Below are positions 6,473-60,103 of a stretch of 64,000 nucleotides of DNA, in pieces (the first letter of the stretch is position 1; each line of letters starts with the position of its first letter). This DNA is from Dictyostelium discoideum (Eukaryota), in contig CM000152.2 of the NCBI GenBank assembly GCA_000004695.1, positions 192,001 through 256,000 on the forward strand, in the 5' to 3' direction. The notes under the pieces are model-generated. The model searched no databases. It saw only the letters and a list, made by a program, of their open reading frames with translations, and had not been told where the DNA came from. The translations under genes were made by a program, and so were the position numbers.

Positions 6473-8536
6473 TTAAGCACTAATTGAACCTTTTCTAAAA
6501 TCATTACGTTCAATTATACAATTAATAACAACTGGTTGTTGATTTTGATTTAAAATTTTATTTGATTCTTCTAAAGCAAATTTTAATTCAGATTCATTTG
6601 TTGATTTAAAACCTTTACCACCAAATGCTATTGCAACTTGATGATAATCAGTATAAGCTAAATTACAACCAACATCACTATTTAATTGTTCTTGTTGTTC
6701 ACGTAAGATTTGAATCCAACCTGAATCATTACCAATGATAGCACCAACTGAAATTTTATGACGTACCATTGTATCCAACTCTGGTATACTATAACCGAAA
6801 GCACCATCACCATAGATTGTCCAAACTTGATGATCAGGTCTACAAAGTTTGGCAGCAATTGAAAAACCAGCACCAACACCCAATGTACCAAATACACCAG
6901 GATCCAACCAAGATAATGGTGCTCTTGGACGAACGATATAACTTGCAGAACCAACGAAATCACCACCATCAGCCACCATAATGGTTTTGTGTGGTAATTG
7001 TTCATCAAACATTTGCAATGCTTTCAATGGATTTAAGAAACCCTCTTTTGATGGTGGAATATTGATTTTATTGGCAATATCAACATTTCTAGAGACATCA
7101 AGATTTGTCAATTCATTAATCCAATCTCTAAATTTCAATTCGATTATAGATCTATCTGATGATGGTAACTCTGAGATTGACTCTGACAATTGTACTAAAA
7201 ATGAACCAGGATCTAAACTGTATGGATAATTAGGTGACTTGTTTTTATATAAATCAATTGAATCCCTATTGATTGAGAATACCTTTGCACGACTATTAAT
7301 TGATCTACCATAATTTAAACGGAAATCACATGTTACACCTGCCAAAATAACCAAATCTGCTTTCTTTAATGCATGAGATCTACAATGTCTAAAAAGATTA
7401 GAATGACTTGTACCCAATAAACCTCTTGACATACTACTAGTGAAAACAGGTATACCCAATGATTGAACACTTCTTTGTAACGATTCAATTGAATAGGCAT
7501 CATTAATCAATGTAACTTGTGAACCAACGATCAACACTGGCTTTTTACATGCCCCGTCTTTATTTGAAACCAATCGGGCTAGTAATGCTGAAACGTGATC
7601 AGAGGTAACTCTAGTTTGATGTTGTCTCACTCTACCATGAATCACTATATTACTATCGATCGCTGAGAATATCTTCTTCAAATGATATGACATATACATA
7701 TTTATTACACGTGATGCCAATGATTTTGCTTGATCTTGATTCTTTAAATACCATCCCCTAACCACTGACTCTTGATATAGAACATCGATTGGGAATTCAA
7801 CAAACACAGGACCCGGTGTACCATTACGTGCCTCATAGAATGCTCTCTCCAACATTGGTACGATATCACTGTTAGTTGAAACATGTGAACACCATTTAAC
7901 ATGTGGTCTAAGTAATGCAAATTGATCAATGTCTTGTAATGATCCTTTTCCTTTCAATAAATCACTTGTTGCACCACCTATTAAAACAACACCACTTTGT
8001 GCCATCTGTGCATTCTTTACTGCTGTTATAGTATTTGTTAATCCTGGACCTGCTGTTACAACTGCAACACCTGGTATACCTGTTAATCTAAAGACACCAT
8101 CTGCTGCAAATACTGTTGTTGATTCATGTCTTACCTTTAGTTTTTTTTTAAAAAAAAAAAAAAAAAAAATATAAATATAAATATTTCAGTTTTAATTTAT
8201 TTTTTTTTTTTTTTTTTTTTTTTATTTTTTTTTTTTTATTTTTAAATATACACATATACATACATCAATAACTCTAATACCAATTTTATCAGATTCAACT
8301 AAAATTGGAGCAATATGACCACCAGTTAATGTGAATAAAAATTTAACACCTTGTTTTGATAAAACATTTGCAACTAATTCACCACCACTTGAACTTTTTT
8401 GAAATTTAAAATTGATAATTTGACCATCACAATCAATAATATTTCTATTTTCTAAAAAATATAATGAGAATAAAACTGATCCAACACTTGCTGCTATAAC
8501 AGCTCCTTTTGTAATATTTTCTTGTTCCAATAACAT
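6473..8536 (-). CDS. TPP-dependent enzyme of the acetolactate-synthase-like family (ILVBL / 2-hydroxyacyl-CoA lyase 2-like, membrane-anchored). Exon 1 is 8264..8536, the intron is 8135..8263, and exon 2 is 6473..8134.
   Basis: Exon 1 encodes an N-terminal TM helix ([18 protein letters not shown]) followed by [31 protein letters not shown]...IRVID. The GTATGT donor joins in phase 0 to [39 protein letters not shown]... (TPP N-domain). The C-terminal TPP-binding region is [10 protein letters not shown]...GNDSGW. An N-terminal membrane anchor plus TPP fold points to ILVBL rather than HACL1 or AHAS. Confidence 0.85.
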
Positions 8537-14242: not shown

Positions 14243-15086
14243 ATGGGAGGAATATTCTCTAAAGGTTACCTACCTGAATTACCAAATGGTTCTCTTATCA
14301 AATTAGGGATTATTGGTTTAGAGAATTCTGGGAAGGTAAATTTTAATTATTATAATATTAATAATAATAATAACAGTAATAATAATAAAAAAAAAAAAAA
14401 TACTAATTATGTAAATTTTTTTTTTTTTTTTTTTTTATTTTATTTTTTTTTTTTTTCAAAATCATGTTTTAATTATTATATAAAAAATAAAAAAAACAAT
14501 AATAATAAATTATTATTATTATTATTATTATTTTATTTTATTATTTTTACTATTTTATTTTATTTTTTTTATTTATTTTATTTTATTAAAGACAACATTA
14601 TTAAATAAATTTATAGATGCATCATCAAAAAAATCTATAGCATCAGTATTAATATCAACAGGAGTTTATATAGAATCTATAATATTTAAAGGATGGGAAA
14701 TATTTGCAGGTGATTTATTATATCCAAATTATATAAGTAAAATTTATAAACCATATTTATTAGGATCAGATGTAATTATATTTATGATTGATTCATCAGA
14801 TATTCATCAAATGACCGAGGCAAAGAATCAGATTGATCTATTGATCCAAGAACAATGTATTAATAGTAGTGTATTTTTAGTAATGGCAAATAAACAAGAC
14901 CAAAAACGGTGTGTTTCAATCCATCAATTGGAGCAGTATTTAGAACTGTACAGATTAACAAACCCTTGGAAATGTTTACCATTATCCTTAATTCAAGAAA
15001 AAGGTATTGAAGATTTAATAAAATGGATTTTAGAAAATACTGTAGTAAGAAAAACTTATAATAATCAATTACAAACTTTACAATAG
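14243..15086 (+). CDS. ARF/ARL-family small GTPase, divergent, of about 196 aa. Exon 1 is 14243..14335, the intron is 14336..14591, and exon 2 is 14592..15086.
   Basis: The N-terminus is MGGIFSK... (Gly2 myristoylation context). The P-loop GIIGLENSGK|TTLLNK is split by the intron (GTAAAT donor, TTAAAG acceptor). The G4 motif is ANKQD. The G3 region reads KGWEIFAGD instead of the canonical WDxGGQ. Confidence 0.7.
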
Positions 15087-48335: not shown

Positions 48336-48381
<46 letters not shown>

Positions 48382-48470
48382 TGGGGTTGGACAAAAATAA
48401 AATTTTTAAAATAGTCATAAATACACACACGCACGCTCACTGGCGCTCAGATCATAATTCAAATAATAAG

Positions 48471-50531
48471 ATGAGAACAATCTCACAAAAACTAATCTTA
48501 TTTTTATCGAAAAATCAAAAACTTAAATATTTCTTTAATACAAGTATTTTATTACTAGTTTTTTATTGGATTTATAAAAATGTTTTAATTAAAAAAAATA
48601 AAAATAAAAATAATAACCATGATGATCATGTCAACCAAAAAATTCAAAATATTCAAGAAAATCAAAAAACCACCACACAAAATATTCAAAATAAAAGAAA
48701 TGAAGATACAACAACAACTAAAAATTATTTTAAATTATCAAATGATATTAAAATTCATGTTTTAAGTACACCAGAAGAATGTGATTTAATTTTAAATGAA
48801 TTTTATCAATCATTATTATTGAAAATGGTTGATGATAAAAATTCACCACCAATGATTGATGGTGCAGACGGTGTAATAATAAATCAACAACAAACAACAA
48901 CAGAATTACTGTTATTCCCAAATTGTAATGAAATAAACAATGATGGTTTAGATTTTATAATTGGTTTTGATGCTGAATGGGGTAATCCAAATAGTATTTT
49001 TGATGATAAAATTGATGATAAAACTACAAAAACACATTATAATCATAAAGTTGCATTAATTCAATTATCAAGTAAAAATGAAACATTTTTAATTCAAGTT
49101 TCACAAATGGAGAAAATTCCAATATCATTGGAACAGATTTTAACAGATCCTCGTTTAATTAAAGTCGGTGTTGCAGTTTCACAAGATGCAGCAACCATTT
49201 TTCAAACATTTTCAGTTGTTACAAAAGGGTATGTTGATTTAGTACCAATTGCAAGATTAACCAATTATGAAGGAAATGGATTAGCAAGTTTAGCATTAAA
49301 CGTTATGAATGTAACATTAAATAAATCTAATAAAATTCGTTGTGGTCATTGGGAGAATAAAAAATTATCAAATGATCAAATTCATTATGCAGCAGCTGAT
49401 GCATGGGTTGGTAGAGAAATATTCGAAATTATGTTCAACACTTATAAAAACTCAAAAACTGATCCAAATGATAAAAAAGATTTAGTTTATACTTTATGTA
49501 GACAATTTACAGGTGCAAGTTTTAAAAGTATAAATAAATTAAAAAATAGAGAAAATAATAATAATGGCAATAATAATGACAATACCAATAATAAACCAAT
49601 TAAAGAAAACATGTTAAAGAAAACTGTACCTGATAAAAGAGTATTATATGATAATTGTTTAATGTATAGTCCTGATGATGTATTATTATCAAGTATTAGT
49701 AAAAAGAAAGTTGAATGGTATGTTAGTAGACAATTGGCAGATATAATTAAAGAAGAACCATTATCAATTAAATTAAAATTCCAACCACATGGTGAAGGTC
49801 ATTCTGGTGACCAATTTTATTTAGCATCAAAAGAGAATATTTGTGTAGTTTGTGGTTCAACTCATAAAATTCTACGTCATTCAATGGTACCACATTGTTA
49901 TCGTCAATATTTACCAGAGGAAATTAAAAGTCATTCATCACATGATGTAATATTAGTTTGTTGTGATTGTCATGCTATTCTAGATAAAAAGAATCAAATT
50001 ATGAAAATGATAATTTCACAACAATACAATGTACCAATTGATAATGAAAATAAACAATTTATAACTGACCATACTTTATTAAAAATTACTCAAATCGCAT
50101 CAATTGTTAAAAATAATTTCTATTCAACAGGAAATAATAATAACATTAGTGAAGATAATTTAATTAAAGGTAATAAAAAATGTAAAAAGAATATTCCAGA
50201 TGAGAAATTAGAAGAAATGAAGAAAATTGTAATGGAATATATTGGAAAGGAAGAGATTAATGTTGAAGATTTAGATGAAATTTTAAAATTAAATCCAAAA
50301 CAAAAGAATGAAAATTATATTCCACATGAAAAAAAAGTTATTGATAAAGTATTGGCAATGGGTGAAAAAGGTATATTTGAATTTATTCGTAGTTGGAGAA
50401 AGAATTTCGTTGAATCAGTTCAACCAAAATTCCTTCCAGAACATTGGTCAATTGATAAAGTTGTTTGTTGTGATAATGGTCATCGTAAACCAAAAGATCA
50501 AAGACAAAAACAAATTCAAAATCAAGAATAA
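48471..50531 (+). CDS. EXD2-like protein, paralog 1 (686 aa from the ATG at 48471): N-terminal TM helix, 3'-5' exonuclease (DEDDy) domain and C-terminal HNH-like Cys/His motif.
   Basis: The exonuclease motifs are FIIGFDAEW (Exo I), HKVALIQLSSKNETFLIQV, and YAAADAWVGREIFE (Exo III, Y-x3-D). The HNH-like motif is CVVCGSTHKILRHSMVPHCYRQYLPEEIKSHSSHDVILVCCDCHAIL. The predicted TM is ILLLVFYWIY. The track ORF extends upstream of this ATG to a non-ATG codon, so the true start is uncertain. Confidence 0.8.
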   Translation: MRTISQKLILFLSKNQKLKYFFNTSILLLVFYWIYKNVLIKKNKNKNNNHDDHVNQKIQNIQENQKTTTQNIQNKRNEDTTTTKNYFKLSNDIKIHVLSTPEECDLILNEFYQSLLLKMVDDKNSPPMIDGADGVIINQQQTTTELLLFPNCNEINNDGLDFIIGFDAEWGNPNSIFDDKIDDKTTKTHYNHKVALIQLSSKNETFLIQVSQMEKIPISLEQILTDPRLIKVGVAVSQDAATIFQTFSVVTKGYVDLVPIARLTNYEGNGLASLALNVMNVTLNKSNKIRCGHWENKKLSNDQIHYAAADAWVGREIFEIMFNTYKNSKTDPNDKKDLVYTLCRQFTGASFKSINKLKNRENNNNGNNNDNTNNKPIKENMLKKTVPDKRVLYDNCLMYSPDDVLLSSISKKKVEWYVSRQLADIIKEEPLSIKLKFQPHGEGHSGDQFYLASKENICVVCGSTHKILRHSMVPHCYRQYLPEEIKSHSSHDVILVCCDCHAILDKKNQIMKMIISQQYNVPIDNENKQFITDHTLLKITQIASIVKNNFYSTGNNNNISEDNLIKGNKKCKKNIPDEKLEEMKKIVMEYIGKEEINVEDLDEILKLNPKQKNENYIPHEKKVIDKVLAMGEKGIFEFIRSWRKNFVESVQPKFLPEHWSIDKVVCCDNGHRKPKDQRQKQIQNQE

Positions 50532-50963: not shown

Positions 50964-53120
<2,157 letters not shown>

Positions 53121-55705: not shown

Positions 55706-55836
55706 AAATGTTCGAATTCGATTGAAATTTAAGAAATAAAAGGTAGGTGGAAAATTAATATATACTCAAAACAGTTTTATTTATATTTATTATTTTTTTA
55801 AAAATGATCATATTTATTAAAAATTATTATATATTT

Positions 55837-57141
55837 CTATAAATTATTTAAATTTTTAAATTTTGAATATTCAAATAATAATTCATCAATATCACTAACA
55901 TCTTGAAGAGTTGTTGGAATTATATAGCTTTTATCTATTTGAAATTAAAATATTAATTAGTAAATATAAAAAAAAGATACATTATTTAATAATGAAAATA
56001 AAAATGAAAACATACTATTAAAAATTGAGGTAAATATTGATTTGATTGTTTTCCAAGTTCTTGTTTTTGGTCTAATTATAAACACTTACAATCTTTTAAC
56101 TATTATTTATTTAATATTTGGGAGAGTAGAAAGATTTTTTTTAACTATATTGTTAATTTCATTTTTTAATGAGATAGTATCTATATTTATATTTTCTAGT
56201 ACTAATATTGCAGCAATTTCTTTACCATGAATTTCATCATCTATACCAATAACACAAGATTCAAAAATATTTTGAATTTTTAAAATTAAATTTTCAAGTA
56301 CACCACCATTAACAATATAACTATCATATGAAAATGAATCATCATATCTTGAACAAAAATACCATAAATTATTTTCATAATAACCAATATCTTTTGTTCT
56401 AAAATATCCTTCATATTCATTTAAATATGGTTGCTTATATATTAATCTATCATTAATATCACCCAATAAACGATTACGTACACCAGGTGGAATGGAAACT
56501 TTATAACAATTTCACCTTTTCATTTTCTTTATTTTCAATTACACTAGCTTGATTATTATTGTTGGAGTTGGTGTTGGTGAATAAATATTTAACAGATATG
56601 ATAATCCTTTTTGAGTATAACCACCAAATATTATATTATGTGTTGCACCAATTCTACAACATGATAATGTTGATATAATTAATTTAATACTATTTTGCAT
56701 ATAAATGATTACAATATCACCTTTTTAATACCTAAATTCTTTAATGATCTTAAAATTTACAAACTTTATCAAATAATTGTTTATATGTAATTTGAGTTGA
56801 AATTTGTTTTGATGGTATTTCATGTACAAATGCGATTTCTTCACCTCTACCATTAACAATATGTTTATCTAATGCATTATAACATGCATTTAATAATCCA
56901 CTTGAAAACCATTCATTATTATTACTATTATAAATATTTTCATATTCTTTATCTCTGTAATATAATAATAATAAAACTATTAATAAAATAATAATTAGAA
57001 GCCATACCAATGAACATATTTTTTAGTAACATCATTCCAAAATGATAATTGATCATTTAATCCATACTGGTAATCATTTTCATAATCAAAAGGTTTTGAT
57101 AATTTAAATTGTTGTTTTTTATTATTATTATTGTTAATCAT
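55837..57141 (-). pseudogene. Decayed partial duplicate of the downstream acyl-CoA synthetase gene, with the same exon layout, an internal deletion of about 0.95 kb, frameshifts and premature stops.
   Basis: The pseudogene's upstream region is similar to the intact gene's. It carries the same 4-exon layout, with a homologous micro-exon and terminal exon (KSYIIPTTLQDVSDIDELLFEYSKFKNLNNL* vs KSYIIPPTLQDDIVIDELLIEYSKFKNSNDI*). The exon-1/exon-2 junction gives TG+A (a TGA stop) where the intact copy has TG+G (Trp). Single-base deletions produce ...KVCKF* where the intact copy reads KVCKFSRSLKNLGIKKGD. The sequence jumps from the (PT)n region directly to the C-terminal third, so the AMP-binding core including the TSGTTSKPK motif is absent. 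TAA replaces TAT at ...NIK(Y). Confidence 0.7.
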
Positions 57142-57292
57142 TTTAATAATTAAATAATTATTTTACATTATTTTGAATTTTTATTAGCTCTATAATAAAT
57201 AAAATAATAGAAAAAAAAAAAAAAAAATTTAACATTATTTATAGGTTGCTGAATAGAGAGTAAAAGTAAAAAAAAGAAATAACCAGTGGTAC

Positions 57293-57500
57293 CAAATAAA
57301 ATTATTTTTCACCACTTTAGTGCTGATATTTTTATATCTGACCAGCCAACCTTAATTCAACACAACAATTTTTTTTTATTTTTCTTTAATTTAATTTATT
57401 GGGGGAGAGTTGTTCAAAAAAAAATAAAGGGTGGCAAACTCAGCAGCTCCACATAAAATTACTTTCCACCACTTTGATGTTGATTTTTTCATATCTGGCT
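57293..57500. repeat. Two imperfect direct repeats of about 50 nt, roughly 110 nt apart, in the spacer between the ACS pseudogene and the intact ACS gene.
   Basis: caaataaaattatttttcaccactttagtgctgatatttttatatctgaccagcc (57293..57346) against cacataaaattactttccaccactttgatgttgattttttcatatctggcttttt (57452..57500); roughly 80% identical. Each is preceded by a short G-rich block (aaccagtggtacc / gggtggcaaactcagcagctcc). Confidence 0.6.
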
Positions 57501-57686
57501 TTTTAATAAAAAATAATTTATTTCAACAACAAATTTTTTTTTTTTCTTCAAGAATAAATCGCAAACAGTTTTATTTATAATTATTATTTTTTAATAGTTA
57601 TTATATTTATTCATTTTAACGTTTATTTCTTTTGATCCCCCAGAATAGGAGAGAGATGGAGAGTTTGTGAAAATTACTATAAATTT

Positions 57687-60038
57687 CTATATATCATTGG
57701 AATTTTTAAATTTTGAATATTCAATTAATAATTCATCAATAACAATATCATCTTGAAGAGTTGGCGGAATTATATAGGATTTATCTATTTGAAGTAAAAA
57801 TATTAATATAATTTTAATAATAGATACAGTTAATAAAAATAACAATAATAAAAATAAAAATGAATTCATACTATTAAAAATTGATGTTAATAATGATTTA
57901 ATTCTTTTCCCAGTTCTTGTTTTTGGTCTAATATTAAAAATAATAATTTAGTTAATATAATTGCTTTTATTGTTATTATTATTATCGAAGATTATTATTT
58001 TAATTATAAACACTTACAATCTTTTAACTATTATTATATATTTAATATTTATGCAAGTAAAAAGATTAGTTTTAACTATATTATTAATTTCATTTTTTAA
58101 TGAGATAGTATCTATATTTTTATTTTCTAGTACTAATATTGCAGCAATTTCTTGACCATGGATTTCATCATCTATACCAATAACACAAGATTCAGAAATA
58201 TTTTGAATTTTTAGAATTAAATTTTCAAGTACACCACTATTAACAATAACACTACCATATGAAATTGAATCATCAGATCTTGAACTAAAATACCATACTT
58301 TATTTTCATCAAAATAACCAATATCTTTTGTTCTAAAATATCCTTCAAACTCATTTAAATAATGTTGCTTATATAATAATCTATCATTAGTATCACCAAA
58401 TAAACAATTACATAAACCAGGTGGTAATGGAAACTTTATAACAATTTCACCTTTTTCATTTTCTTTATTTTCAATTACACTAGTTTGATTATTATTGTTG
58501 ATTTTTGAAACTATTTTAATATTATAACCAGGTGCAACTTTACCAATAGCATCAACACTACAATTTTTTAAATTTAAATCATTTTCAGTTGAATTATAAA
58601 TCATTGGAAATCCAGATTCAGTTTGCCAATAATCAATTATTATTGATAATTTTAAAGTATTGGTTAAATAATTTATTGTCTTTTCATAAACTTTTTCAGA
58701 ACCAATTGATACATGTTTTAAATGTTTTAAATTAAATTGAAATCTAATTTCACCATTTGGGTCAACCATTTTTATTAAATTCATTTGGTGTGGTGTTGTT
58801 GGGAATACATTAACATTATACTTTTCAATTAAACTCCAAAACATTCTAACTTTTTCAGTATCATTATCATTTTCATTTAATGGACCTTCAATAAAAACTG
58901 ATTTACAGCCAGAAAATAAGCAACCATAAAGCAATGTACTATGACCACTAACCCAACCAATTGAGCTTAAACTTAAATAAGTATCACCCTTATTTAATTT
59001 AAATATATTTTTAACTGAATAACAAAGTGATGCAATATGACCAGCTGTTTCTCTAACAATTGCTTTTGGTTTACTTGTTGTACCACTGGTATTCATAACA
59101 TAAATTGGATGATTTGATTCAACTAATTCATACTCTAATAATGGTTCAATATCACCACCATTAACTAAATCATTCCAATCAAAAATATTAAAATTATGAT
59201 TATTATTTTGATTATTATTATTATTGTTCTTATTATTACCATTATTATTATAATCATTTCTATTGAATAAAATTATATTTTTTAAATTTAAATTTGAATT
59301 TATTAATGATTCTATTATTTCTTTATAAAAATAATATATATCATTATTTAATAAACCATAGTTTGAAGTAATTATTAGTTTTGGTGATTGATTGAAATTT
59401 GGTGTTGGTGTTGGTGTTGGTGTTGGTGTTGGTGTTGGTGTTGGTGTTGGTGTTGGTGAATAAATATTTAACAAATCAGTTAGTCCTTTTTGAGTATAAC
59501 CACCAAATATTATATTATGTGTTGCACCAATTCTACAACATGATAATGCTGATATAATTAATTCAATACTATTATGCATATAAATTATTACAATATCACC
59601 TTTTTTAATACCCAAATTCTTTAATGATCTTGAAAATTTACAAACTTTATCAAATAATTGTTTATATGTAATTTGAGTTGAAATTTGTTTTGATGGTATT
59701 TCATGCACAAATGCAATTTCTTCACCTCCACCATTAACAATATGTTTATCTAATGCATTATAACATGCATTTAATAATCCACCTGAAAACCATTCATTAT
59801 TATTACTATTATAAATATTTTCATATTCTTTGTCCCTATAGTATAATATTAATAATTACTATTATTTTAATTATAATATTAATATTATATATTATTAATT
59901 TAACATCATACATACCAATGAACATATTTTTTAGCAACATCATTCCAAAATGAAAATTGATCATTTAACCCATACTGGTAATCATTTTCATAATTAAAAG
60001 GTTCTGATAATTTATATTGTTGTTTATTATTATTATTA

Positions 60039-60096
<58 letters not shown>

Positions 60097-60103
60097 CTAT
60101 CAT
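57687..60103 (-). CDS. Acyl-CoA synthetase of the acetyl/propionyl-CoA synthetase (ACSS-like, AMP-binding) family of about 706 aa in four exons: 59916..60103, 58018..59835, 57872..57927 (56-nt micro-exon) and 57687..57784.
   Basis: The ACS N-terminal region is FSFWNDVAKKYVHW|W|DKEYENIYNSNNNEWFSGGLLNACYNALDKHIVNGGGEEIAFVHE. The AMP-binding motif is TSGTTSKPKAIV. The micro-exon encodes the conserved LPKTRTGKRIKSLLTSIFN (cf LPKTRSGKIMRR). A coding (PT)10 tract from (TGGTGT)n is present. Splice phases 2,2,1 all close. Track ORF 58014..59708 ends at a TAA that is really the GTAAGT donor (ttgTAAgtg). Confidence 0.85.

Follow-up and report, generated by a model that had tools for sequence, protein, structure and literature searches.

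A G2/G3 fusion remnant beside an intact acyl-CoA synthetase gene of Dictyostelium discoideum, probably left by an internal deletion in an older tandem array

Introduction

When a shortened and damaged gene lies next to an intact and very similar one, is it a recent and incomplete copy of that neighbor, or what is left of an older array? This question is raised by a locus of Dictyostelium discoideum in which a block of 1.3 kb stands downstream of an intact acyl-CoA synthetase (ACS) gene, in the same orientation. We will refer to the block as the "short copy," and to the whole 64,000-nt stretch of DNA analyzed here as "the window." An earlier note, made from the letters of the window, read the short copy as a partial tandem duplication of its neighbor which had died recently. 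The comparison with two related genomes, presented below, leads to a different pedigree.

The Intact Neighboring Gene

The intact gene and its repeat are laid out as follows:

57687-60103, minus strand: intact ACS gene (copy B); spliced ORF, 719 aa
60103-59916, 59835-58018, 57927-57872 (56-nt micro-exon) and 57784-57687, minus strand: its four exons
59396-59452: hexanucleotide repeat within the gene, (TGGTGT)n on the plus strand and (ACACCA)n on the coding strand, as read from the sequence

The three introns of the spliced ORF (80, 90, and 87 nt) are all canonical (GT..AG). The 719-aa product matches the Pfam families ACAS_N (173.1 bits), AMP-binding (52.7 bits), and AMP-binding_C (45.4 bits), in every case exceeding the gathering score. 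Enzymes of the ANL superfamily carry a P-loop of the form (T/S)SG(T/S)TxxPK and a C-terminal catalytic lysine motif, PKTxSGK; both are found here, as TSGTTSKPK and PKTRTGK. Among the NCBIfam families it matches propionate- and acetate-CoA ligase best. The gene is a predicted short-chain-type acyl-CoA synthetase of the ANL superfamily, sharing domain architecture, P-loop, and lysine motif with the Acs/PrpE/ACSS-type ligases. Unlike acetate- and propionate-CoA ligases proper, it scores far under the equivalog cut-offs (PRK10524, 342.8 vs. 955; TIGR02188, 335.9 vs. 724.95; TIGR02316, 296.5 vs. 827.4 bits) and carries long Asn-rich and Thr-Pro inserts. The Thr-Pro insert is encoded by the (ACACCA)n repeat, whose length is highly variable among orthologues and paralogues. 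Literature searches turned up nothing on this ACS subfamily in Dictyostelium.

Anatomy of the Short Copy

The short copy (55837-57141, minus strand) is a collinear, shortened, 84-92% identical version of the intact gene. Three BLASTN blocks pair 55820-56076 with 57670-57932 (84%, E 9e-69), 56073-56564 with 58001-58500 (92%, E 0), and 56560-57186 with 59439-60095 (89%, E 0), confirming that the exons, intron positions, and micro-exon of the intact gene are recapitulated, as the earlier note had described. A further 50-nt block lies in the 3' flank (55769-55818 against 57563-57611), and upstream of the ATG the similarity to the intact gene reaches only some 45-90 nt. The short copy has kept both flanks and each of the three intron positions. 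The pairwise alignment of the two blocks, which the same note had proposed, places the breakpoints at a junction between 56565 and 56564. The parts are given below, where G1, G2, and G3 denote the three tandem copies found in related genomes (see the section on the three-copy array):

57142-57686, minus strand: spacer from the intact gene to the short copy; orthologous to the G1-G2 spacer, holding a G2-type upstream region
57008-57141, minus strand: exon 1 remnant; ATG at 57141-57139, poly-Asn tract 54 nt shorter than in the intact copy, ends in TG
56955-57007, minus strand: intron 1; 53 nt, GTATGG...TTACAG, next base A
56565-56954, minus strand: exon 2 remnant, first part; homogenized region, weakly G2-type
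56564-56565, minus strand: deletion junction, where G2-derived meets G3-derived sequence; CCAACTC, then CAACAATAATAATC
56090-56564, minus strand: exon 2 remnant, second part; G3-type
56072-56089, minus strand: collapsed intron 2; 18 nt
56016-56071, minus strand: micro-exon remnant; 56 nt, with the PKTRTGK-type motif reading PKTRTWK
56015-55935, minus strand: intron 3; 81 nt
55837-55934, minus strand: terminal exon remnant; 98 nt, stop TAG at 55839-55837, G3-type and running into a G3-type 3' flank

Within the spacer, a 49-nt unit is repeated, at 57292-57340 and 57449-57497. It was considered as a mobile element and rejected as such, being conserved in the orthologous spacers and occurring nowhere else in the window; a regulatory or incidental nature is more likely.

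Loss of Function

All of the lesions first noticed in the window are present. The exon 1/exon 2 junction codon is TG+A (57009-57008 plus 56954), a stop, where the intact copy has TG+G. Four single-base deletions, opposite positions 59632, 59606, 58456, and 58425 of the intact copy, are distributed evenly over the two parts of the exon 2 remnant, and that opposite 59632 produces the reading KVCKF-TAA, with the TAA at 56752-56750. Two deletions of 3 nt also fall in the second part, and one of them leaves a TAA (56109-56107) where the intact copy has a TAT. Beyond the lesions noticed at first, intron 1 has shrunk from 80 to 53 nt and intron 2 from 90 to 18 nt. Measured against the neighbor, 0.90-0.94 kb is missing, the exact figure varying with the alignment of the hexanucleotide repeat, and the adenylation core, including the P-loop, is gone with it. 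Rescue by splicing into a shorter intact ORF, which would have spoken for a living gene, was looked for in the short copy and none was found; its longest ATG ORF has 53 codons.

The substitution pattern is consistent with this picture. The short copy's own branch carries 3 synonymous and 24 nonsynonymous substitutions, small counts that do not differ from the neutral ratio of 1:4.2 (p = 0.46) but do differ from the branch of the intact gene (Fisher p = 0.013-0.018). We thus regard the short copy as an unprocessed, predicted non-functional pseudogene beside an intact ACS gene. A processed origin (retrocopy) was rejected, as the introns are kept and the copy sits in tandem beside its relatives. 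A tRNA scan of the 64-kb window found none, so that a tRNA-linked retroelement explanation does not apply.

Could the damage be an artefact, with two tandem paralogues collapsed into a chimera by the assembly, or frameshifts introduced by sequencing errors? Tandem paralogues of about 90% identity in a genome of 78% A+T are hard to assemble, and two of the four single-base deletions do fall in A-runs. However, collapse would yield a full-length hybrid in register, whereas the junction seen here is out of register by 0.9 kb. Several of the lesions are also unlike homopolymer errors: substitution-type stops, the other two single-base deletions, the 3-nt deletions, and intron deletions of 72 and 31 nt. 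The neutral 3:24 pattern is, moreover, a property of real decaying sequence. We therefore consider an artefact very improbable.

A Three-Copy Array in Related Genomes

Two diverged assemblies of the discoideum clade, which fall together on one side of the tree, served as comparators (loci L001 and L002). Each has three full tandem copies, G1-G2-G3, at the syntenic locus, flanked by dynamin A on one side and a Dicty_CTDC gene on the other. Over about 520 nt the spacer of the window aligns collinearly with L001 9491-9992 (82%, E 4e-110), and it is also collinear with L002; on the far side, positions 56082 to 51384 of the window align in the same order with L001 15282-19991 (93%). The three-copy state is taken as ancestral because of the phylogeny, rather than from an outgroup locus. 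Dynamin A of the window equals PDB 1JWY at 241 of 241 residues, but both related genomes are equally identical, so that this protein does not discriminate within the clade. A dynamin A search for further syntenic loci (D. citrinum, D. firmibasis, and others) gave no Dictyostelium match, the best being 78%. In D. purpureum, family members form an independent four-copy tandem array or stand as a single gene, with other neighboring genes, and for that reason those loci cannot polarize the copy number. The subfamily to which the intact gene belongs is a dictyostelid-expanded one, as its four tandem copies in that species illustrate.

The intact gene of the window clusters with G1 of both related loci (NJ bootstrap 87-99%), with dN/dS against those genes of 0.31-0.35, and is accordingly the G1 orthologue. 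As for G2 and G3, disabling lesions occur in both, independently and with none shared, in the window lineage, in L001, and in L002. Yet G2 and G3 show a dN/dS of 0.28-0.31 between L001 and L002, equal to the 0.26 of intact G1. Over the first 0.6 kb, at the 5' end, all copies are homogenized, with only about 5% divergence between paralogues. One reading would be that the extra copies were lost in parallel, repeatedly and very recently across the discoideum clade, or that gene conversion with G1 makes the dead copies look young, as a conversion reservoir for the one functional gene; we regard this as an improbable proposal. In one automated gene model from a related assembly (P0001), a 30-nt "intron" skips a TAA.

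The lesions of the short copy were searched for in G2 and G3 of the two related genomes, and none is common to them. Because no lesion is held in common, the inactivation postdates the split from the related lineages, whereas the paralogy itself is older than that split. The idea of a young gene death is hence half right: the death is recent in this sense, as the neutral-like branch also suggests, but the duplication is not, for it predates the split.

Ancestry of Each Segment

Diagnostic sites distinguish G2 from G3 along the short copy. Upstream of the ATG they are G2-type over G3-type at 24:2, from the ATG to the junction they are mixed (7:6), and past the junction they run 6:50, with 27 G3-type against 2 G2-type sites in the second part of the exon 2 remnant alone. 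Trees agree with these counts. The 5' flank groups with G2 (NJ bootstrap 98%) and the 3' half with G3 (100%), while the segment from the ATG to the junction groups with G2 at 64%, a weak assignment because this region is homogenized among all copies. Within it, states common to the short copy and G2 only are found at 56981 and at 56599-56598, the latter 33-35 nt from the junction; the 16 nt directly left of the junction, on the other hand, equal one G3 version of the repeat. The short copy is thus best described as a G2/G3 fusion remnant.

These results bear directly on the proposal that the adjacent gene was recently and partially duplicated in tandem, and that the copy then lost 0.95 kb and decayed. 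The two blocks are indeed adjacent, similarly oriented, collinear, and 84-92% identical, with intron positions alike, which speaks in its favor. Nevertheless, the short copy and its neighbor group together in 0% of bootstrap replicates, both in the 3' half and in the 5' flank; G1 of the related genomes is nearer to the neighbor (5% divergence) than the short copy is (8.9%, 3' half); and in other genomes the two halves have separate orthologues, G2 and G3. Nor is the copy truncated at a duplication boundary: the ATG end, the stop end, and the flanks are all present, the missing part is internal, and the duplication was therefore not partial. We find this explanation hardly credible.

Size of the Missing DNA and Proposed Origin

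Mapped on the related loci, the missing DNA amounts to 4,004 bp in L001 (10714 to 14719) and 4,011 bp in L002. The spacing from stop to stop is 1,850 bp in the window, against 6,085 and 6,032 bp in the related loci. The earlier estimate of about 0.95 kb lost at a repeat, P-loop included, was thus right about the P-loop and close for the gap relative to the neighbor, but the true loss relative to the three-copy state is about 4.0 kb. Simple repeats border both breakpoints: (ACACCA)n on the left, at the position equivalent to the repeat of the intact gene, and an AAT/poly-Asn tract on the right. The microhomology between them is only about 1-5 nt, so that the suggestion of a repeat-mediated deletion keeps its setting but gains weak support from the breakpoints.

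From these data, the pseudogene is probably the product of an internal deletion in an older G1-G2-G3 tandem array of short-chain-type ACS paralogues. The starting state would have been the three paralogues between dynamin A and the Dicty_CTDC gene. About 4 kb would then have been lost, starting in exon 2 of G2 at the hexanucleotide repeat that encodes Thr-Pro and ending late in exon 2 of G3, shortly ahead of its poly-Asn tract; the adenylation core and its P-loop would have gone with it. In the resulting chimera, 0.6 kb from the 5' end of G2, with its promoter region, would be followed by the 3' 0.7 kb of G3 and its downstream flank. G1 survives intact in the window lineage as the 719-aa gene, and the remnant would have drifted neutrally, accumulating frameshifts, stops, and intron shrinkage. 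We infer that the small lesions are later than the deletion.

In gene coordinates, the two sides of the junction lie 0.9 kb from each other, and two courses of events could have led to it. We lean, with a little better than an even chance, toward one out-of-register deletion of the microhomology type. The other course would comprise an in-register unequal exchange between G2 and G3, with loss of a unit of about 3.0 kb and formation of a full-length hybrid, and a later intragenic deletion of 0.9-1.0 kb which, together with the small lesions, killed that hybrid; only in this variant would the exchange have been in register. Homologous exchange is plausible within the 5' 0.6 kb, where the paralogues are about 5% diverged, the mixed 7:6 sites between ATG and junction fit it, and the repeat reads CACCAACACCAACTCC at the junction, as in G3 of L002; the unit measures 3,017-3,031 bp, and the gap within the gene would come to 973-994 bp. 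This variant requires two events where one suffices, however. The states shared with G2 only extend to within 33-35 nt of the junction, and the junction can be composed exactly from the left-hand CCAACTC of G2 plus the right-hand CAACAATAAT, with zero extra bases. We hold it to be possible but doubtful. The two courses cannot be separated because of the weak G2 assignment of the 5' part and the G3-like 16 nt, and the single deletion remains our preferred reading.

Comparison with Known Systems and Significance

Fusion genes arising by unequal exchange between tandem paralogues are well known, as in hemoglobin Lepore (delta/beta), the CYP21A1P/CYP21A2 chimeras, and the red/green opsin hybrids. 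As in the Lepore-type fusions, the short copy takes its 5' end and promoter from the upstream paralogue and its 3' end from the downstream one, the intervening DNA is lost, and the copy number of the array falls by one. In contrast to them, its junction is 0.9 kb out of register with a few bases of microhomology, which is no classical in-register exchange unless a second deletion followed; and whereas a Lepore-type fusion gives a hybrid protein, the product of the short copy is dead.

Unprocessed pseudogenes have also been described in Dictyostelium: 26 tgr pseudogenes accompany 38 tgr genes in strain AX4 (PMC12745789), and racK is a further example (PMC3188802). Like these, the short copy, with its introns and flanks kept, is interrupted by stops and frameshifts and has functional relatives beside it. 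It differs from them in belonging to a metabolic enzyme family of the ANL type, and in that its chimeric origin can be traced through comparator genomes.

For annotation, 55837-57141 should be recorded as a pseudogene and not as a gene, and the 719-aa gene is the sole predicted functional member of the ACS array in the genome of the window. In related assemblies, automated models mask pseudogenes with invented micro-introns and so inflate the apparent size of gene families. The locus further illustrates that identity to a neighbor is a poor clock: the 85-95% noted at first suggested a young partial duplicate, while the comparators show an older three-copy array cut by deletion, so that this identity reflects old paralogy and past constraint, not recent copying. 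The short copy is an instance of ordinary birth-and-death turnover in a lineage-expanded family of metabolic enzymes.

Genomic setting and the intact gene

With a G+C content of about 20%, long A/T runs and AAT-codon tracts, the window is typically Dictyostelium-like, and both of its acyl-CoA synthetase (ACS) copies are encoded on the minus strand. The intact copy has dynamin A as its nearest upstream neighbour (minus strand, 60381 to about 62900), a gene whose product matches the dynamin portion of PDB 1JWY/1JX2 at all 241 residues. The same 241/241 identity is found at the syntenic loci of two diverged discoideum-clade assemblies (L001 and L002), and thus this gene places the window at the level of the D. 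discoideum clade. A further tandem pair is present on the plus strand (48381-50531 and 50964-53120), its two intact ORFs being 716 and 718 aa long; both contain a 3'-5' exonuclease domain (DNA_pol_A_exo1), and they are 68% identical to one another.

The intact ACS gene splices cleanly into a 719-aa ORF, its introns (80, 90 and 87 nt) being all GT..AG:

Exons of the intact ACS gene (spliced ORF)
60103-59916, minus strand, first exon
59835-58018, minus strand, second exon
57927-57872, minus strand, third exon
57784-57687, minus strand, fourth exon

The product contains the Pfam domains ACAS_N, AMP-binding and AMP-binding_C, and its nearest NCBIfam families, propionate- and acetate-CoA ligases, score far under their cut-offs; it is thus predicted to be a divergent short-chain-type ANL enzyme. 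Its closest database proteins, P0001 (80% identical) and P0002 (73%), come from the L001 and L002 arrays and have several states in common with the short copy and not with the intact gene. Beyond the dictyostelids, the best matches (P0010-P0079) share 29-33% identity and are propionyl/acetyl-CoA synthetases of bacteria, a good many of them Flavobacterium; no non-dictyostelid eukaryotic protein is evident among the matches listed, which may just mirror database composition.

The short copy

The short copy (55837-57141, minus strand) and the intact gene were compared by BLASTN, base-level alignment, an indel catalogue and string searches. The collinear homology first noticed from the sequence alone was borne out by four BLASTN matches, whose E values range from 1.6e-11 for the block of 50 nt in the flank to 0:

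BLASTN blocks, short copy against intact copy
55769-55818 and 57563-57611, 88% identity
55820-56076 and 57670-57932, 84% identity
56073-56564 and 58001-58500, 92% identity
56560-57186 and 59439-60095, 89% identity

All the lesions listed in the earlier note were recovered: the codon TG/A across the exon 1/exon 2 junction, a 1-nt deletion leading to KVCKF-TAA (TAA at 56752-56750) together with three additional 1-nt deletions, a TAA in place of TAT at 56109-56107, and an internal gap of 0.90-0.94 kb relative to the intact gene, through which the P-loop was lost. On the minus strand the deletion junction, between 56565 and 56564, reads ...CCAACTC/CAACAATAATAATC... (slash at the junction). Further lesions, absent from the earlier note, are an intron 1 shortened to 53 nt, an intron 2 reduced to 18 nt (56089-56072) and a poly-Asn tract 54 nt shorter. 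The homologous frame switches between the three reading frames, every one of which contains stops, and the longest ATG-initiated ORF on the same strand has 53 codons; splicing round the lesions thus yields no intact ORF, and the copy is dead, as had been proposed.

Ancestry of the short copy

The loci L001 and L002 belong to assemblies built from Nanopore and Illumina data for diverged "D. discoideum" isolates, of which some are termed possible cryptic species (PMC12745789). Both are syntenic with the window, running from dynamin A through three tandem ACS copies (G1, G2 and G3), each with all four exons, to a Dicty_CTDC gene on the opposite strand. In the window, the intact gene and everything upstream correspond collinearly to G1; the spacer plus exon 1 of the short copy correspond to the G1-G2 spacer and the first part of G2; and the 3' part of the short copy, with all that follows downstream, corresponds to the last part of G3 and the G3 flank. 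A 49-nt element is present twice in the spacer preceding the short copy (57292-57340 and 57449-57497, 84% identical); it is kept in the G1-G2 spacers of both related loci, is also found upstream of G3, and might serve the family as a promoter element.

An eight-sequence MAFFT alignment was used for segment tests by G2-versus-G3 diagnostic sites and NJ bootstrap:

Affinity of short-copy segments
Upstream of the ATG, G2-type to G3-type sites 24:2, grouping with G2 at 98%
ATG to junction, sites 7:6, grouping with G2 at 64%
After the junction, sites 6:50, grouping with G3 at 100%

In neither the 5' flank nor the 3' half did any replicate (0%) join the short copy to the intact gene beside it, while the intact gene and G1 grouped at 87-99%. 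Divergence over the 3' half is 8.9% between the short copy and its neighbour, against only some 5% between that neighbour and its orthologue G1. These results indicate that the short copy is a chimera with a G2 front and a G3 back; its description as a partial duplicate of the neighbouring gene does not hold. Since both G2 and G3 are closer to a relative in the window than to one another, the three-copy array is older than the lineage split, and it was the window lineage that lost DNA. Mapped on the related loci, 4,004 or 4,011 bp are missing, and the stop-to-stop spacing is 1,850 bp versus 6,085 and 6,032 bp. A deletion between paralogues of a tandem family produced the short copy, which classes as an unprocessed pseudogene.

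Route of the loss

The left (5') breakpoint is the end of an (ACACCA)n Thr-Pro repeat, and the right one lies just ahead of an AAT/poly-Asn tract late in exon 2; both kinds of tract are highly variable in length among copies. Orthologues differ in the length of such tracts (window 59396-59452 and 60030-60098; L002 near 6842-7060 and 14486-14660) by up to 120-130 nt. The sequence common to both breakpoint sides is only about 1-5 nt, pointing to a junction of microhomology or slippage type and not to recombination between long repeats. The suspected repeat-mediated deletion finds weak support in the position of the breakpoints beside variable simple tracts.

A single out-of-register deletion of 4 kb would join the left part of G2 to the right part of G3, and is favoured by a small margin: it needs one event, the states exclusive to the short copy and G2 continue to 33-35 nt from the junction, and the latter is fully accounted for by the left side of G2 followed by right-hand sequence, no bases being left over. 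These same points count against a two-event route in which G2 and G3 first exchanged in register, at the cost of a 3,017-3,031 bp unit, and an intragenic deletion of 973-994 bp came later; this somewhat less likely course draws on the 16 nt adjoining the junction, identical to one G3 version of the repeat, and on the homogenisation of the 5' 0.6 kb among all copies.

Age and inactivation

For orthologous pairs, dS is 0.11-0.12 when the window is set against the related genomes and 0.065-0.075 when these two are compared with each other. Changes were assigned to branches by parsimony. The short copy's own branch carries 3 synonymous and 24 nonsynonymous changes, fitting the neutral 1:4.2 (binomial p = 0.46) and differing from the 9-11 to 12-15 on the intact gene's branch (Fisher p = 0.013-0.018); a dN/dS of 0.31-0.35 against G1 marks the intact gene as constrained. 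None of the short copy's lesions was shared with G2 or G3 of L001 and L002. With its neutral-like branch, this places the inactivation in the window lineage after the split. The young gene death proposed earlier is therefore half upheld: the death is recent in comparison with the array, but the paralogues themselves are old.

The array in related genomes

G1 is intact at both related loci, while G2 and G3 (L001 10001-12454 and 13153-15536; L002 10001-12360 and 13063-15455) have their own in-frame stops or frameshifts, which differ between L001 and L002 and include none of the window's. Lesions notwithstanding, L001-L002 dN/dS for G2 and G3 (0.28-0.31) is similar to that of intact G1 (0.26); either the copies were lost in parallel and very recently, or the dead copies owe their young look to conversion from G1. 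In the deposited model of P0001, a 30-nt GT..AG "intron" (L001 11635-11664) jumps an in-frame TAA, turning DQTSTIEN*ENELGEIV into DQTSEIV, and P0002 is patched similarly; automated gene models thus conceal pseudogenes in these assemblies.

An orphan fragment in the G2-G3 spacer (L001 12644-12747; L002 12547-12689) comprises the 56-nt micro-exon flanked by the last part of intron 2 and the first part of intron 3; left over from an earlier array rearrangement, it is missing from the window because that spacer was deleted there. Divergence among paralogues is some 5% in the 5' 0.6 kb (window 56565-57141 and 59444-60103, and the same regions of L001 and L002) versus 9-12% in the 3' 0.7 kb, whereas orthologues diverge equally in both, a pattern that suggests old gene conversion limited to the 5' end. 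In D. purpureum (L003 10001-20499, GL871108.1), four intact tandem copies of the same subfamily (657-659 aa) lie among neighbours differing from the window's, with no dynamin called nearby; the family formed tandem arrays there independently.

Significance

In joining two paralogues, the short copy resembles Lepore-type fusion genes in outcome; it differs from them in its out-of-register junction and in being dead. In Dictyostelium families, pseudogenes often stand beside working relatives (PMC12745789; PMC3188802), and no paper on this ACS subfamily in Dictyostelium was found; the short copy is real but ordinary. The observation behind the earlier note was sound, and its interpretation holds for a dead paralogue and fails for a neighbour-derived duplicate. 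The main value of the short copy lies in its corrected annotation and in a warning: the identity of one neighbour to another is a poor ground for inferring a "young partial duplication".
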